Shown: positions 39,355 to 64,000 of the stretch, piece after piece
Layout: each line of letters opens with the position of its first letter
Numbering within the stretch: position 1 is the first letter of the stretch
Sequence record: NC_135728.1
Strand: one strand, 5' to 3'
From: a phage
DNA length: 64,000 bases
The notes under the pieces: generated by a model
What the model was told of the DNA's origin: nothing
Database searches by the model: none
The model's input: only the letters and a program-made list of their open reading frames with translations
Program-made: the position numbers and the translations under genes

Positions 39355-39660
39355 GTGCACAATGAAAACATTGTCCGAAGTTTTGGTGGTGATCCTGATG
39401 ATCATTACGTCCATAGCGGCTGTTGCCGGAATACTCACGGGTGGAACATGATAAACACACATGCATCTGAAGAGACATCCAAAGGAGTGACTATATGTCC
39501 CTTGACTGAGCCAGTGCAAGAGGAAAACTTCGATTCTGAAGATTCTCCATCTTTGCTCCAGGTAGATCCTGAGGCTGATGACCTAACGTGGGAAGACATC
39601 GTAGATATCTGGTTCTCTATTATGCCTGAGCACGAAGAGTTCAGGGGTGGTAGACTATGA
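39355..39660 (+). CDS. hypothetical acidic protein (start uncertain: GTG 39355 or ATG 39448)
   Basis: GGAGAA RBS before GTG; alternative ATG 39448 overlaps the stop of the micro-ORF below. Confidence 0.4.
   Translation: MHNENIVRSFGGDPDDHYVHSGCCRNTHGWNMINTHASEETSKGVTICPLTEPVQEENFDSEDSPSLLQVDPEADDLTWEDIVDIWFSIMPEHEEFRGGRL
39362..39451 (+). CDS. alternative hydrophobic micro-ORF, 29 aa
   Basis: GGAGTG RBS; MKTLSEVLVVILMIITSIAAVAGILTGGT; mutually exclusive with the GTG-39355 reading. Confidence 0.3.
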   Translation: MKTLSEVLVVILMIITSIAAVAGILTGGT

Positions 39661-39781
39661 AGCACCGAGCCCACACAGGTTCCTCATGCTAAAGCATGGC
39701 CTGAAGAGGCAAACGTGTATAATTCCAGCGTATTGGGACGTATAAAACCCAGTTCACACTCTCATTTCCAGAGGAGATTTC

Positions 39782-39997
39782 ATGAAGATAGAAATATTTG
39801 GTGGGGCTGACAACACTCGTGGCCTGATTTACCTTGAATTCGATGAATCATACCTGCCAGAGGTGTTAAATATGGACTCTGTTGCTGAGGCTTTGGGAGT
39901 AAGTCCTAAAGATCTCCACTCTGGTGCTGAGATTGATGGTTGGGAGGAGACCATGAACATCGATTTCAGTGAAGTAGGGGATGAACCACTGGACTGA
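39782..39997 (+). CDS. small acidic protein
   Basis: GAGGAG RBS; last rightward gene before the non-coding hub. Confidence 0.5.
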   Translation: MKIEIFGGADNTRGLIYLEFDESYLPEVLNMDSVAEALGVSPKDLHSGAEIDGWEETMNIDFSEVGDEPLD

Positions 39998-40346
39998 CAC
40001 ACAATTAGTTGCCCGGCTAAAGTGCTGGGAGCACCCATAACACATCTTTCAACTAAATTTCCTACCACCACAATCACTTACCTCCCACACATGACTGTTT
40101 GCTTGTTTAGTGAGCAGTCATGCCTTGACATTCTTGCCTATCCTGATAAAATTAAGTTCTTCTCTTTTCTTTTACCGAGTAATTCGGGTTTTCTGTTCTC
40201 TTCGGTTTGAAGGGGTATGGAGATACACCTGAGTGAACAGGGTGAACAACCGAACCATTGGCTATGGCATTAGCATGGCGAAGCGGACGGGTGACGAAAG
40301 AGGGGCCGGAGGACACCAGTCACTGCCATATGATATATGGGTGATA

Positions 40347-40865
40347 ACCTGAAGAGTCTGAATAAGTGTTTAAGTACCAGTCAGAGGAAAAGGTGAATGG
40401 TAGCCGAAGGGGGAGGGGGGTTACCTGCTTCTGTAAACATGCATCTGAAATACTACTTTAGATAACCTGAACCTGCCTTTCTGACAAATATTCCCTATTA
40501 AACTTGAATTATTTATAGAAAATACCACAACACCACTTAAGTCTTTGATTTTACACACAAATCTTACAGATATTAAACCTCTCTATTTAACATACCTGTA
40601 ACATATACTATACTCCACCTGTCTGATCAATTTCCCCAACTACATCCCCATATTTTCCCTGTCTGTACTACCCCTGCCCCGCCGGGAGTCCCGTCATATC
40701 TGGCTTTCCAGCAAATATCACACCCACAAATATCATCACCTGAAGAGGGTTTCATCCCATAATACATGCCTTACCTGAAGAGCGCTTCATATACCCCGTA
40801 AATTTTTTAATTGACCCCCTCCCCGCCGCCGGAGGGGTTGGCTTTTCCCACACAAACCTGAAGAG
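40347..40865. repeat. dispersed direct repeats of ACCTGAAGAG (4 copies)
   Basis: Copies at about 40347, 40738, 40773, 40856; ACCTGAAC variant at about 40463. Confidence 0.5.
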
Positions 40866-41425
40866 TCAGCCAGAAATATCTGAACAGCCAGTTATACCAC
40901 GATTTTGTGCTTGTCCTACAGGAGTGCTTCCCTGTCAGGAGCCGGTAGCGACTGGAGTGCTGCCAGGCGGACGAAATGGGAATACTTCTCATTCTTATAA
41001 CAATTCTCAAATATCGAGGCAGTGAGGCAAATTAATAGGTGAGGCCGTTCACACAGTGGCACAACATTTGCAACCTATCTTGTGGGATTGAATGAGAATA
41101 CCTATCATTGTGAGAACTGTTATCATTACGGGCAATTTAACATAATACCCATTATGCGCACCACTGGCGATACATACAGGGATTTATAACATGAGTTACT
41201 GTTTACGTATATAACAATTATATTTCTTACTATTTGTGTGGGATATAGTTAGCAGCCGATAGATTAGATATTGACCTGCAGACTTCCAACCGTCTAGACG
41301 TCTAAACGCCCACACAACAAGGTTTATACATACATTACTGAATGTAAACAGGGCCGCAAAAATGCTACCATACAAGATTGTAAATTTTTCATGCAGCACT
41401 TGACAAAGAGGAGAAAAACTTGTCT

Positions 41426-41505
41426 GACACTTTAGACACAATAGTGACATAATATGACACCTTTGACACACTGGACACATTAAACATAATTGACATGCCT
41501 GACTG
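41426..41505. repeat. iteron-like array of GACA(C/T) repeats phased every 9-11 bp
   Basis: Eight copies: GACAC, GACACA, GACAT, GACAC, GACACA, GACACA, GACAT, GACT. Confidence 0.6.
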
Positions 41506-41540
41506 TTTACATAGCTAACTATTTACTAAAAAATGATAAG

Positions 41541-41852
41541 CCATGCCATTCGTTTGCATGATAAAGATTAGCAAGTTAATAATCTTTCGCTGGCTATGCC
41601 AGGTGACCTTTGGTCACCCCTTCGGGTGTTTCTATGACATAATATAAAAGCAGGGCAACTATTAGCAGATCATAGTTGCCTTGCTTGTTAACACCCTTGA
41701 GACGAAGGCTTTGCCTGAGTTTATGTCATGATTAACTAAATACAAGGCAACTATGATCTGATTAATAGTTTGCAGACAAACTATCACGGGGGTGATGGTT
41801 ACTGCTTTTATATTATGTCGCGACTCCGTCGCGCCATGCCATTCGTTTGCAT
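41541..41852. repeat. nested repeat complex: 19-bp direct repeat, 18-bp inverted repeat and internal palindromes
   Basis: CCATGCCATTCGTTTGCAT at 41541 and 41834; GACATAATATAAAAGCAG (41636) inverted at 41802; GGTGACC-TTT-GGTCACC; GGCAACTAT-N9-ATAGTTGCC. Confidence 0.6.
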
Positions 41853-42477
41853 AGTTGCCTTATTGTTACGAATAAAACAATTGCATTGTTAATGATTTCT
41901 TATCTTTCTCTTAGTCATCTAATGATTCCAGTCAGTCTAGTAATGTACAGTAAACATTAGACGACTAAAGATTTCCCTGTTTATGATAACTCACCGTGAT
42001 AATTTCAGGCTGTTTACTAAAAATGTTGACACCTAAGCTGATTTATGTTATGCAGTTTACACGAATAATTATTTTATGCAGGTATTGACTATTCCGTTAT
42101 TCTATGGTTGGAATAAATACTTAGCAGACTATAGAATGGTGAGCGTACGTAAATTCTGAGATCTGGCGGCTATAGTTATACTCGATTTTTCACGTAGAAC
42201 ACGCTTTTGTGAGTGTGTAAGTGTATGACTTATAAAGATTTTTAGTTGTTGACAAGATATTGAAGATGTGCATCAGGTTAAATTTTGTGCAATAGCGGCA
42301 TTACGTGCAATTCTGAGAGAGAAAACGGGTAAAAATGGCCCTGCTACCACAAGATGAAAGATTATGCAATAGTTATTTTTATATGTATATTTGTACAGTA
42401 GGGTTAATTGCTGGCTTGTTGATTATTCCACTTGCCAGGTGGGGCCGTTTGTGGTAGGAGAAATACAGACAAAAAGA

Positions 42478-42508
42478 AAGGGGCCTTTTAAAGCCCCTGA
42501 TAGTTTAG
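42478..42508 (-). terminator. rho-independent terminator of the leftward block
   Basis: On minus strand GGGGC-loop-GCCCC followed by TTTCTTTTT, just past gene 42517-42936. Confidence 0.6.
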
Positions 42509-42516
42509 TTAAGAAA

Positions 42517-42936
42517 TTATAATGATTCGTATATTTCAAAAATCCGATTTGCCAGGTCGTTACGGTAGCGGAATTTTTCCTCACGTTTGATCATCAGATC
42601 TTTAAAGCCATATTCTTTAAGCACTTCATTAACTTTATGGCGGCATACCTTCATATTATCTTGTGCGTCACCAATAAACTTGTTGCTATGGTGCATGGCT
42701 TTAATTTCTTCTTCCAGGACCAGGGCAACTATGCGGACCGGATCAAGCTGATAGGCGGTAACATCAATGCGGCATTGTAAACGGCTTTTTACGTCTGCCA
42801 CCGGATATACTGCAACCTCTTCCCCGTCAACATTGACAATAATTAGTTTACCATCGATTTCGAATCCTTTCGCCGCCGGACCGTGACAAAAAGCGTTATC
42901 AAAGCTATATGCCGGATTATTAGATTTAATGTTCAT
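42517..42936 (-). CDS. hypothetical protein
   Basis: Track ORF; AGAGGT RBS. Confidence 0.5.
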   Translation of the reverse strand: MNIKSNNPAYSFDNAFCHGPAAKGFEIDGKLIIVNVDGEEVAVYPVADVKSRLQCRIDVTAYQLDPVRIVALVLEEEIKAMHHSNKFIGDAQDNMKVCRHKVNEVLKEYGFKDLMIKREEKFRYRNDLANRIFEIYESL

Positions 42937-43081
42937 GGTGTTTTTACCTCTTAGTTAATTTTCTTACAACTTCCCTTCAAAAAAGAATATAGCAAAACTG
43001 CCGATCCTTGTCAACCAAGGATAGCATAATTTTTATGTGATCAAGGGGCTTTATTGCCCCCTGATCGTGCAACTTGTTGTA

Positions 43082-52899: not shown

Positions 52900-53860
52900 T
52901 GTAAAATTATTTTTTGGGTAGAATTCTCCAGCCGCCACCCCTGCCAGGTTTGCAAGCTTTCACTCTCCCACCTGGTCAGTTAGGTCCTGCTAGGGCTGGC
53001 CCCGCCAGGTTGCAGCAGTTGACGCACTATGTTAGAAAAATTTTTTGAAAAGTGTTGACAACGGCCCCACCAGGTGGCACAATATACATATCGAAAGGAC
53101 GGCAGGCACCGGTGACGGGGGAGACAACCACCGGGGATGGGCGCTGCATAAAATGAGAACGGTTATCATTATCATTTAAAAATTTATGCAAAAAGTCCTT
53201 GCTTTCTTTGTCCTGTGTGATACTATAATAACAAGCCGGGGCAGCAGGGGCCGGGAGACAATCACCGGGCCTGCCCGTTATTCTGCAAACGAGAATGATT
53301 ATCATTCAAAATTCTAAATGAGAACTCCTCGCATTTAATAAATTTAATTAGCATGCTAATTACCATCCGTAACAATTTCCTATAAAACAGTATCCACTAA
53401 AATATTCCCATATAGAAATTTTAAAAATCCATTTCTGAAAACGAAAAATCGATTTCGTCCCCAAAAATTTCAGGTCGAGAGCCGGAACGATTTCCAGAAA
53501 ATCCGATTCAGAAAACGAAAAACAGATCGAGTACTGAGAAATTTATCGAGAAAAATTTTCAGAAAATTCAATCTTTGAAATGAAAAACAGATCGAGTACC
53601 TGGAAAGCTGCACCGCAACTTCAAGATAGTGGTTAGATTGTTACCATAGAAGGTCAAGGGTAAGTGGAGGGAGTTATAGTAGAAGGATGTGAGTATGTGC
53701 AGGAAATCTGTAATGGTGGTCTGGAATATGGTGCAAACGATAGGATGGGTGATTCAGCTTGTCGCGCCCACTCTGAAAAAATCCATTTTAGTTTTCGATC
53801 CATTTTCTGATTTTCTAAGGATTTTAAAATATCCAGCCCGGTGAAATATCAAAAGGAGGA
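52900..53860. repeat. about 1 kb ORF-poor region with several direct-repeat families
   Basis: CC..CCAGGT-type motifs; two related 80-nt units containing GGGAGACAA(C/T)CACCGGG and GAGAA(C/T)G(G/A)TTATCATT; three GAAAACGAAAAACAGATCGAGTAC-type repeats about 70 bp apart; AAATCCATTTTAG repeats. Confidence 0.55.
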
Positions 53861-62207: not shown

Positions 62208-62483
62208 CAATAGTTCAGGTAGGTCGTTAAGCTACCCCGCACCATTACGTGCATAGCCATACGTTTTCACGTAGGATCGGACCATCTCATATTCCTATGA
62301 TAAGCAACCACAGGAATCCTCCCATTTCGACCGCACTTGCTGGTCTACTTCCTTTCGGAATGGCCTCTGAGCGTTCGCTCTTTTGAGCGCTTCGTTGCGG
62401 ATTACCTTGCCATAAGGTTTAGGCTTCCCGCAGTTAAAGAGGTTATTCGACATAGATTACTCTATGAAGCCACAATGTTATTT
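62208..62483 (-). ncRNA. putative group I self-splicing intron (276 nt) in the DNA polymerase gene
   Basis: Interrupts the ORF between the H and D codons of motif C; exon ends in U, intron ends in G; GUGG guide 11 nt into intron can pair with exon CCAU; P-like CUGCGGGAAG, Q-like AAUCCGCAAC, P7 strands GACCA / UGGUC. Confidence 0.65.
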
Positions 62484-64000
62484 ATGGTAATAAATAATAC
62501 GACGAACACCTTCATCGTACCACCCACGCTTCACCATTTGGTGGTGCATGAGTATCCCAACTAAGTCACACAGCGATGCACCACCATTTTGTTGGTATGC
62601 ATTAAGTAAAGAGTGTTTAGATCTGGTCCAGATAGCATGACCATCGAAAGAGTAGATAAACTTCTTACCTGTTGCTTCCCAGAATTTCTCCAGATCCTCT
62701 TTGCGCCCCTTAAGACCGGGGTTGGCATCCCAAAGTGCATCTATTACCCTTTGCCCCAACTCTGGAGAGATGTCCAACATATCTGCAACTTTATCTTTTT
62801 GTGCCCCGTACATAACACCATACGTGATAGGTTTACCGTCGTTACGGGACACCTCTCTGCCTGCTACTTTTGTATATGCCTCGGCATTGTTTTGGTGTGC
62901 GTCTCCGTTACTTACAACATCATAATACAGGCCGTTGTCGAACTCAAAGGCACCCCAAGCCCCGATAAGCTGCTCTAAGTTGGACCCGTCAATACCGATC
63001 TGAAAGTATCCGGGAGGAACACCCCATAGACTACGCATCTCTTTACCCATAACCACTTTAGGAGATGGTTTAGGCATGTTTGCACAAATACTGTGTTTCT
63101 GTCTGGAAGTGTTTGTTAGCCCAGAACTTTTAGCAGGAAGCTTATGGTCAATCTTCAAACGTGGGTGATTAAGAAGACCAGTATCAACCTTATCCTCCTT
63201 GATTGGGTCAAGGACCGATCTGCGGTTTCGCAATGATAACCACAAGACGATATCTTTAGCCATCTCTCCGTTCAATTTTTCAAGATTCGGACACAGGTGT
63301 CCAAACGTATCTTTCAGTTGCGGAGAAGTAATAAGTGCCCTGGCTTTTCTACGTATTTTCCCGAACACTTCCTTTTTAATCCTTTCGGAGTTAGGAAAGC
63401 TTCGGAACTTGTGCACGGTTGTCTGGAACTTAGCATCAGTTTTGTTCCAGAAGTTGATAATTAGGTCACAATACTCTGACTCTAAAAGCTCGTCCATATA
63501 AGCATATACTCGTGCATCAACATCTGCATCAGGTAGAGCTTTCTTCTTGCTGTCTTTAGTTACATCCTTAGTTCTCCACATTGTCGGGAGCCAGCCAGCG
63601 CTGATCAGATACCGCTTAATGTCGTCCTGATTGCTGATTTTCATAGGTATCTTGCAGTCCGGCATTCGCTTCTGCTGTAGATCACTTATTGCCTGATCCA
63701 TCAGCTCTTTAGGCAAAGGGTGTGGTGTGGAAGTTCCCTTAATATAGCCTCTCAAGAAATCAGCCATCTTATCGGGGTCTTTGCAGCCCATCTCTTCACA
63801 CCATTTTATCCCCATCTTGCTGACATCCCCTGTAGAGGTAAATGCTCTCTTAGGCGGGGCTTTGAACTCTAAAGCGCTCATGTCTACAGGATAGCCAAGC
63901 TTATCTTTTAACCATTTCCAACCATTATTAGAGATTGTCCCGTCTTGGTTAAACGGCTTTTCAGGGAACTTGGGCCGCTGAGACATTGACAGCTCTTTTA
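62484..64000 (-). CDS. DNA polymerase family A, exon 1 (partial; N-terminus may lie beyond the window)
   Basis: Motif B-like KPITYGVMYGAQ; ends ...VRRIIYYH (cf. Pol I RMIMQVH-DE); reading frame stays open upstream of the track start at 63986. Confidence 0.8.

Follow-up and report, generated by a model that had tools for sequence, protein, structure and literature searches.

Phased TGACAY repeats form a hypervariable array beside the left terminal repeat of Vequintavirus genomes

Within a long non-coding gap in the phage sequence NC_135728.1 lies a run of short direct repeats of the form GACA(C/T), and the question it raises is what such a run does and why it sits where it does. The window analyzed here is a stretch of 64,000 nucleotides of that record, and the run, which we call array A, occupies 41425–41497 on the + strand. 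An earlier note on this DNA had described eight copies of GACAC or GACAT about one helical turn apart and had taken them for iterons bound cooperatively by an initiator or regulator, possibly the helix-turn-helix (HTH) protein encoded at 1303–1653. The 3 kb around the array match 152 phage records at 80–99% identity, essentially all of them rV5-like myoviruses of the genus Vequintavirus, and by this similarity the source of the window is itself an rV5-like Vequintavirus. In phage rV5, the array falls between ORF163 (+) and ORF164 (−), in a 2.6-kb gap that the rV5 genome paper draws as a grey box with the label 'non-coding' and leaves unexplained (PMC3606486).

The array is a real feature, consisting of a short motif repeated on the same strand in roughly helical phase. 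There are eight phased units with the consensus TGACAYAMT, seven of which contain a strict GACA[CT] and one of which is degenerate. GACAC starts at 41426, 41435, 41456, 41465 and 41474, and GACAT starts at 41446 and 41492, all on the + strand; two degenerate copies, at 41483 and 41501, read AACAT and GACTG. No GACA[CT] is found on the − strand within 41399–41505. The gaps from copy to copy are 9, 11, 10, 9, 9, (9, 9) and 9 bp, with a mean of about 9.4 bp. Since that mean is just under one helical turn, the copies drift round the helix in the window, and strict one-face phasing is better in the relatives, where the gaps are 10–11 bp. The description in the earlier note therefore needs two adjustments. 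Seven strict copies stand, but the eighth would have to be GACAA at 41402, which lies 24 bp upstream, out of phase and inside the terminal repeat described below, and which belongs to a separate conserved motif (CTTGACAAAGAG). Similarly, the common strand, the 9–11-bp gaps and the exceptional length of the chain hold up, but a single helix face does not.

Whether a run of this kind could arise by chance depends on what is counted. GACA[CT] reaches a density of 7 in 80 bp at the array, against a maximum elsewhere in the window of 3 on the + strand and 4 on the − strand. When clusters of any 4-mer are considered, which corrects for looking elsewhere, the plain count is borderline by itself, with 7 of 100 Markov-1 simulations reaching 7. 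The array also contains a phased chain of six GACA at gaps of 9–11 bp, and across periods from 6 to 30 bp no 4-mer gives a longer chain. The corresponding maximum in 60 simulations was 3–5, and none reached six. The case for the array is thus carried by the phased-chain statistic together with the comparative data, rather than by the cluster count. The earlier note had also called for a motif scan of the whole genome, and this was run by adding rV5 1–67000 and 101016–137947 to the window to make up a complete genome. At least four GACAY per 80 bp occur in only two places, the array and a set of 21-bp iterons at 1144–1229, to which we return below.

The left edge of the array coincides with a genome end. 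Several Vequintavirus records start about 335 bases ahead of the query sequence and contain that sequence twice. The annotation of phage Gotham lists a repeat_region at 1–459 and again at 136567–137025, and this aligns end to end with 40966–41424 of the window. In HdK5, ECP2309 and Gotham, the left start of the record recurs 459 bp from the record end, and the two copies are identical. By homology, the window would therefore contain one copy of a 459-bp direct terminal repeat (DTR) at 40966–41424, which starts with GGCGGACGAAATGGG and ends with GAGGAGAAAAACTTGTC. Gotham, HdK5, ECP2309 and YN3, which are independent deposits, all end in ...GAAAAACTTGTC; these four genomes stop exactly at ...CTTGTC and restart at GGCGGACG, placing the boundary at 41424|41425. 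With the DTR so placed, the array starts on the base that immediately follows the right DTR edge, which makes it, as read from these alignments, a genome-end feature. For HdK5 and EdH4, a terminal redundancy of 458 bp has been published (Korf 2019, PMC6563267). In Klebsiella phage KPP-1, a member of Mydovirus, a 514-bp DTR was determined by coverage and PhageTerm and described as 'T7 type' (PMC9862379). The edges of the KPP-1 repeat align on the same landmarks, N|G[GA]CGGAC on the left side and, on the right, TTGT preceded by a purine tract. The Phapecoctavirus Mt1B1_P17 has a 328-bp repeat at the same genomic position, beside an ORF164 homologue.

The two edges of the DTR have different surroundings. 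At the right edge, a small palindrome, TGTC|T|GACA (41421–41429), straddles the boundary between 41424 and 41425, being made of the last four DTR bases and the first array unit. The sequence CTTGTC|TGACA[CT] is invariant in all 13 of the Vequintavirus genomes that form our comparative set. The left flank (40918–40965, + strand) contains two ACWGGAGTGCTKCC units, and GTGCT, found 1–4 nt before the left cut, is a candidate signal for that cut. GTGCT also precedes the left boundary in Mydovirus and Phapecoctavirus. The left flank has no array matching array A, just 2–3 copies of ACWGGAGYGCT, which are missing from some genomes. One assembly shows a further arrangement. Shigella phage CM1 (MK962749.1, 105534–106580) has a perfect 523-bp tandem duplication composed of the DTR and, beyond it, exactly 64 bp of array A, so in that assembly the far edge of the array also acts as a terminal-repeat edge. 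Either the duplication is an assembly artefact, or the right repeat edge is able to sit at the far end of array A; the duplication fits an end-related role for the array. Scanning IMG/VR with the DTR end returned a single contig only.

Some other elements were seen in and around the DTR. Inside it, at 41094–41132, are palindromes of the form GAGAAT-N3-TATCATT that resemble Fur boxes, with others at 53155–53173 and 53291–53309. Phapecoctavirus (15/19) and Mydovirus (16/19) have better matches to the Fur consensus in their repeats or flanks, and such palindromes could act as an operator for a regulator of the host or the phage. A conserved island within the DTR at 41131–41165, ATTTAACATAATAC...TTATGCGCAC, is shared with Mydovirus KPP-1 and A7_1/LTH01, where it lies about 250–300 bp before the right repeat edge, that edge being the actual one in KPP-1 and a presumed one in A7_1/LTH01. 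The non-coding DNA to the left of the DTR contains four copies of ACCTGAAGAG, at 40346, 40738, 40773 and 40855, and C-rich repeats, ACCCCTGCCCCGCCG, at 40670 and 40814.

To the right of the boundary, the 13 genomes diverge in a characteristic manner. The stretch from the boundary to a 20-mer, GCCATGCCATTCGTTTGCAT, varies from 106 to 211 bp and is unalignable between lineages. Within it, array A has 2–7 strict GACAY plus degenerate copies, with gaps mostly of 10–11 bp. An unbiased count of 5-mers in this segment places TGACA at the top, with 47 occurrences against 3.2 expected; TTTAC, in second place, and ACTGT come next. Units were extracted by anchoring on positions 1–3 (A-C-A), which are invariant by construction, and the resulting logo reads T-G-A-C-A-Y-A-M-T. 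Its informative positions are −1 (T, 0.71 bit), 0 (G, 1.26), +4 (Y, 1.02), +5 (A, 0.76) and +7 (T, 1.13), and the remaining spacer positions have 0.47 bit or less. Comparing the window to FFH2, turnover is by the gain, loss and replacement of whole units, with the first unit and the TGACAY core being kept. A kept core, free spacers and one orientation throughout suit a set of binding sites better than they suit a neutral satellite, even though the turnover is clearly driven by slippage. A second kind of unit, AYTRTTYAC, follows array A. In the window, this array B is reduced to a remnant at 41500–41526 (+ strand), CTGACTGTTTAC and AACTATTTAC, and in the relatives it has 1–8 copies at a period of about 15 bp. 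The repeat zone is closed by the first copy of the 20-mer at 41540–41559, and a second copy is found at 41833–41852, both on the + strand. The 20-mer occurs twice in each of the 13 genomes with no more than 3 mismatches, its copies bracketing the hairpin region described next. Array A was found in 119 records, all of them Vequintavirus. It is absent from KPP-1 (Mydovirus), Mt1B1_P17 (Phapecoctavirus), A7_1 and LTH01, which have other, unrelated short repeats or none at that place.

The array unit appears once more nearby. About 190 bp to the right of the array is an inverted repeat of 184 nt (41636–41819) with perfect 18-nt arms, which could form a long hairpin. Its predicted fold as single-stranded DNA has −50.2 kcal/mol, compared to −17.1 ± 2.9 for shuffled sequences (z = −11.3). 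The base of the stem, TGACATAATAT, is identical to the array unit at 41445, i.e., the unit TGACATAATA recurs exactly at the hairpin base. Exact TGACAYAATA is found only twice in the 64 kb, at 41445 and 41635, and when up to one mismatch is allowed, 5 of the 10 matches are within 41138–41820. Equivalent long inverted repeats are present in KPP-1, A7_1/LTH01 and Mt1B1_P17. Their inner arms differ, each being complementary to its own partner, and their outer ends read (G)ACAY[AT]ATA(A). Since unit-like arm ends occur in other genera, whatever reads the motif is probably conserved beyond Vequintavirus, and that argues against a genus-specific HTH protein as the binder. The inverted repeat also contains terminator-like hairpins facing both ways (41648–41686 and 41779–41800), and the Murica and Alma records annotate terminators there. 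Therefore, part of the resemblance among the arm ends may be due to AT-rich terminator tails.

A possible answer to what the array does, and the one we tentatively favor, is that it serves as a phased, cooperative platform for a protein engaged in processing concatemer junctions or genome ends. Since it starts directly after the DTR, the protein it binds would most likely be one that helps to form or process those ends. Replication is expected to produce head-to-tail concatemers in which a single 459-bp repeat lies between neighboring genomes, and packaging would have to cut both repeat edges and duplicate the repeat, as in T7-type packaging. Several copies of one DNA-binding protein, for which a small-terminase-like or end-processing factor is the candidate, would occupy the TGACAY units. 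The resulting assembly would bend or coat the DNA, and it would assist in marking or processing the adjacent edge across TGTC|T|GACA. This factor may also be active at the stem base of the 184-nt hairpin, where the 10-bp unit recurs. Because the copies would be redundant, their number and spacers would be free to drift by slippage and recombination, while the core and first unit are kept.

Several considerations weigh against this proposal. The DTR of the window is placed by homology from one copy, and the 9-bp gaps of the window leave some units off a common helix face. Mydovirus, Phapecoctavirus and A7_1/LTH01 do without the array; the first two have homologous DTR ends, and the DTR of A7_1/LTH01 is assigned by resemblance only. 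The lack of the array in sister genera makes it more likely that the conserved cut signals are inside or at the ends of the DTR, and the array can then be no more than an accessory. GTGCT before the left cut and the purine tract 4–8 nt before the right cut are, on present alignments, the likelier signals. No small terminase was identified in the phage. The ORFs upstream of the large terminase gene were considered as a source of it, but ORF66 and ORF67 are spanins. Finally, the best-known arrays in a comparable position are those of T7, and their role is not known to have been established. A more specific proposal, which we regard as quite unlikely, is that TGACAYAATA is the recognition element of a subfamily-conserved factor acting both at the DTR edge and at the hairpin base, with the array and hairpin together forming the machinery that duplicates the DTR. 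Duplication would then take place during concatemer processing, e.g., by hairpin-primed or nick-primed synthesis through the repeat. If true, this would offer a tractable model for end regeneration in short-DTR phages.

The window also contains an origin-like module at 1020–1653 (− strand), made up of the HTH gene (1303–1653), iterons (1144–1229) and an AT-rich stretch (1020–1140). The HTH gene is ORF79 of rV5, and its product matches PHROG 12838, 'replication initiation protein', at 3e-79. The product also matches Pfam DUF6945 above the cutoff, HTH_36 at the cutoff and, weakly, RepA_N initiators in PDB. Starting 75 nt downstream of the HTH stop codon are four 21-bp palindromic iterons, CTGTCCG-N5-CGGACAC, and after them the AT-rich stretch of 120 bp. 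Where the HTH homologue is most divergent (88.8% identity), the half-sites of the iterons are kept and their 5-nt centers vary. The module lies 1.4 kb from the point of divergent transcription, which is also the minimum of the cumulative GC skew. An initiator, iterons and an AT-rich region in this textbook arrangement make 1020–1653 a probable origin by its composition and a better candidate than the array. A GC-rich (~50%) non-coding stretch at 780–1010, located between the ORF at 64–642 and the AT-rich region with its iterons, is conserved in a divergent relative; Rfam has no match to 780–1010 at the gathering threshold.

The locus of the array has the opposite polarity. The + strand genes stop near 40000, the − strand genes end at 42517, and the cumulative GC skew is maximal at 40.4–42.6 kb of the window. 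Convergent genes and a skew maximum at 41.4 kb are not origin-like, since an origin would give a minimum. The rV5 authors ascribed the change of skew at this locus to the orientation of transcription (PMC3606486). The GC content is 0.34–0.39 over 41200–42400, but that AT-richness is shared by the whole terminal non-coding region and hence is not specific to the array. There is no cognate initiator gene adjacent to the array, and the sole initiator-like gene is 40 kb off with palindromic iterons of its own. The array is probably not a replication origin. What survives of the iteron interpretation is the signature of repeated sites, in which the core is kept and the spacers vary; the replication-initiator part is not supported, given the DTR edge, the convergent genes and the skew maximum.

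It could still be argued that the HTH protein binds the array, which would then be an auxiliary origin or a site for replication control or tethering near the genome end. The initiator-like matches of the protein to PHROG 12838, DUF6945, HTH_36 and, weakly, RepA_N are in keeping with this. Its own iterons contain GGACAC or GGACAG and are the sole other GACAY cluster in the genome, and the array region is AT-rich (GC 0.35–0.38). Among plasmid Rep proteins, dimers bind inverted repeats and monomers bind direct iterons with a shared core. Both the protein (118 records) and the array (119 records) are limited to Vequintavirus, but this is plain genus-level co-occurrence and is weak evidence. The half-sites themselves share only GACA(C), with CGGACA[CG] arranged in inverted pairs 5 nt apart in the iterons versus direct nTGACAY in the array, and the chance of finding GACAY in a 21-bp repeat unit is about 8%. 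The convergent genes and skew maximum speak against the idea as well, as do the GACAY[AT]ATA arm ends in genera without the protein. We therefore consider it unlikely that this protein, named as a candidate in the earlier note, is the one that binds the array. A still smaller chance attaches to the array being a set of primase start sites at the DTR edge, where the last lagging-strand primer would be laid down and the repeat left single-stranded for concatemer annealing. GTGTC, the − strand reading of GACAC, is a recognition sequence of the T7 gp4 primase, and in rV5 the annotation gives a T7-like DNA polymerase for ORF228 and a primase/helicase for ORF230. Five T7-type sites occur in 115 bp where 0.2 are expected, and none is in the DTR on either strand. 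However, about 0.9 would be expected in the DTR, so their absence there is not significant; half of the units of the relatives are GACAT, whose template ATGTC is not a T7 site, and no mirror-image array lies left of the DTR. On balance, the primase explanation is very improbable.

A role in transcription, either as a cluster of sigma-70 promoters or as sites for a winged-helix regulator of the OmpR/PhoB type, is also improbable, if less so. Promoter-like sequences are indeed present: TTGACA-16-CATAAT matches at 11/12 positions at 41463–41490, CTGACA-18-(TG)CATAAT matches at 10/12 at 41424–41453, and a leftward TTGTCA-18-TACAAT is located at 41406–41377, just downstream of the array on the − strand. 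Among the 13 genomes, sites matching at 10/12 or better were found in only 7 and at shifting offsets, so a conserved promoter in the array was rejected, and such sites seem to arise from the composition of the units. No gene follows on the + strand, and Rfam gives no match. Read on the − strand, the array consists of TGTCA direct repeats with AT-rich spacers, at a 10–11-bp period in the relatives, which recalls a Pho box (consensus CTGTCATAWAWCTGTCAY), where TGTCA-type direct repeats with AT-rich spacers are bound head to tail at about one helical turn. However, the Pho box has a fixed 11-bp register that the 9-bp gaps misfit, and it comprises 2–4 units, in contrast to spacing of 9–11 bp and up to 8 units in the array. 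No −10 element is in register on the − strand, the 5-bp core carries little information, and the array has no link to phosphate biology. To much the same degree, we doubt that the array is simply a neutral, hypervariable tandem repeat arising by slippage or unequal exchange at a recombination-prone DTR edge. It is true that copy number, spacers and length (106–211 bp) differ even among close relatives, that adjacent units share spacer types within a genome in the manner of recent duplications and that sister genera manage without the array. Neutral turnover does not account well for the core and first unit being kept in arrays that cannot be aligned and whose spacer families differ (CTTT, AATA, ACTG), for the strictly uniform orientation or for the unit turning up again 190 bp away, at the base of the hairpin, and in the arms of the inverted repeats that other genera have.

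Among known systems, T7 supplies what appears to be the closest architectural match to an array in this position. In T7 (NC_001604), 16 bp separate the 160-bp terminal repeat from a run of 12 TAAAG units, known as SRL, in which the usual step is 13 bp. Like array A, SRL adjoins the left terminal repeat on its inner side (16 bp off in T7, 0–1 bp here) and comprises many same-orientation copies of a 5–7-bp motif at a regular period in non-coding DNA, in a phage with short exact terminal repeats. Additionally, rV5 has a T7-like DNA polymerase and primase-helicase. The motifs differ, being (C)CTAAAG in T7 and TGACAY here, and so do the periods, at 13 bp versus 9–11 bp. Dunn and Studier in 1983 reportedly placed a second T7 array (SRR) on the other side of the repeat. 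Our scan of that side in T7 found three scattered copies of TAAAG, and the corresponding flank here has 2–3 copies of a different unit. Since the T7 arrays have no established function, the likeness is architectural and not mechanistic.

Other comparisons are more limited. Origin iterons such as those of lambda ori and plasmid Rep systems likewise combine a conserved core with variable spacers in direct repeats that are phased and lie in AT-rich non-coding DNA. Their units are typically 17–22 bp, in contrast to 9–11 bp with a core of about 6 bp here, and the array differs further in having no adjacent initiator gene and in the opposite gene orientation and GC-skew polarity. The TGATCA/G hexamers of P1 pac, the R sites of lambda cosB and the pacL/pacR sites of SPP1 are short repeats on which a multimeric protein complex probably assembles, bending the DNA. 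Array A resembles these in having multiple short repeats directly beside a cut; it differs in being missing from sister genera with homologous ends, so it lacks the conservation expected of such a site.

The open frames that run across the array do not appear to be genes. On the − strand, these are 41196–41480 and 41389–41496, and neither start nor length is conserved in the 13 genomes. The ATG of the open frame falls within the hypervariable array; 6 of the 13 genomes lack it or have it elsewhere, and the length of the frame ranges over 55–152 codons. An open frame persists across the DTR boundary because the repeat is conserved at the DNA level. A real Cys-rich gene over the array was thus rejected, and the earlier view of these Cys-rich frames as artefacts was borne out. 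The ORFs flanking the array have no known domains that we could find. Rfam gave nothing above threshold for 39500–43000, the sole match being a sub-threshold, suhB-like one at 42464–42532, and a tRNA search of the 64-kb window found none. Away from this locus, the − strand has a group I intron at 62258–62493 (Rfam RF00028, 64.7 bits, E = 4e-14) directly next to the 3′ end of a 502-aa ORF at 62478–63986. In the Vequintavirus literature, we found no transcriptome, no origin mapping and no account of the array repeats.

The array is, then, genus-specific and hypervariable, its phased TGACAY units being set against the inner side of the left terminal repeat, and it accounts for part of the 2.5-kb 'non-coding' box of rV5. 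How short-DTR phages recognize, cut and duplicate their repeats is understood in outline only. To our knowledge, the flanking arrays of T7 have been known for decades without being assigned a role, and array A is a second, unrelated example, this time in a large and heavily sequenced group of coliphages of therapeutic and biocontrol use. Its exact position at the repeat edge, its hypervariability and its uniqueness in the genome provide a natural allelic series for testing array function. For practical purposes, the DTR boundary fixes where Vequintavirus genomes should be opened for annotation, and ORFs called across the array should be regarded as spurious. The search for the replication origin in these phages is redirected to the initiator-iteron module at 1020–1653.

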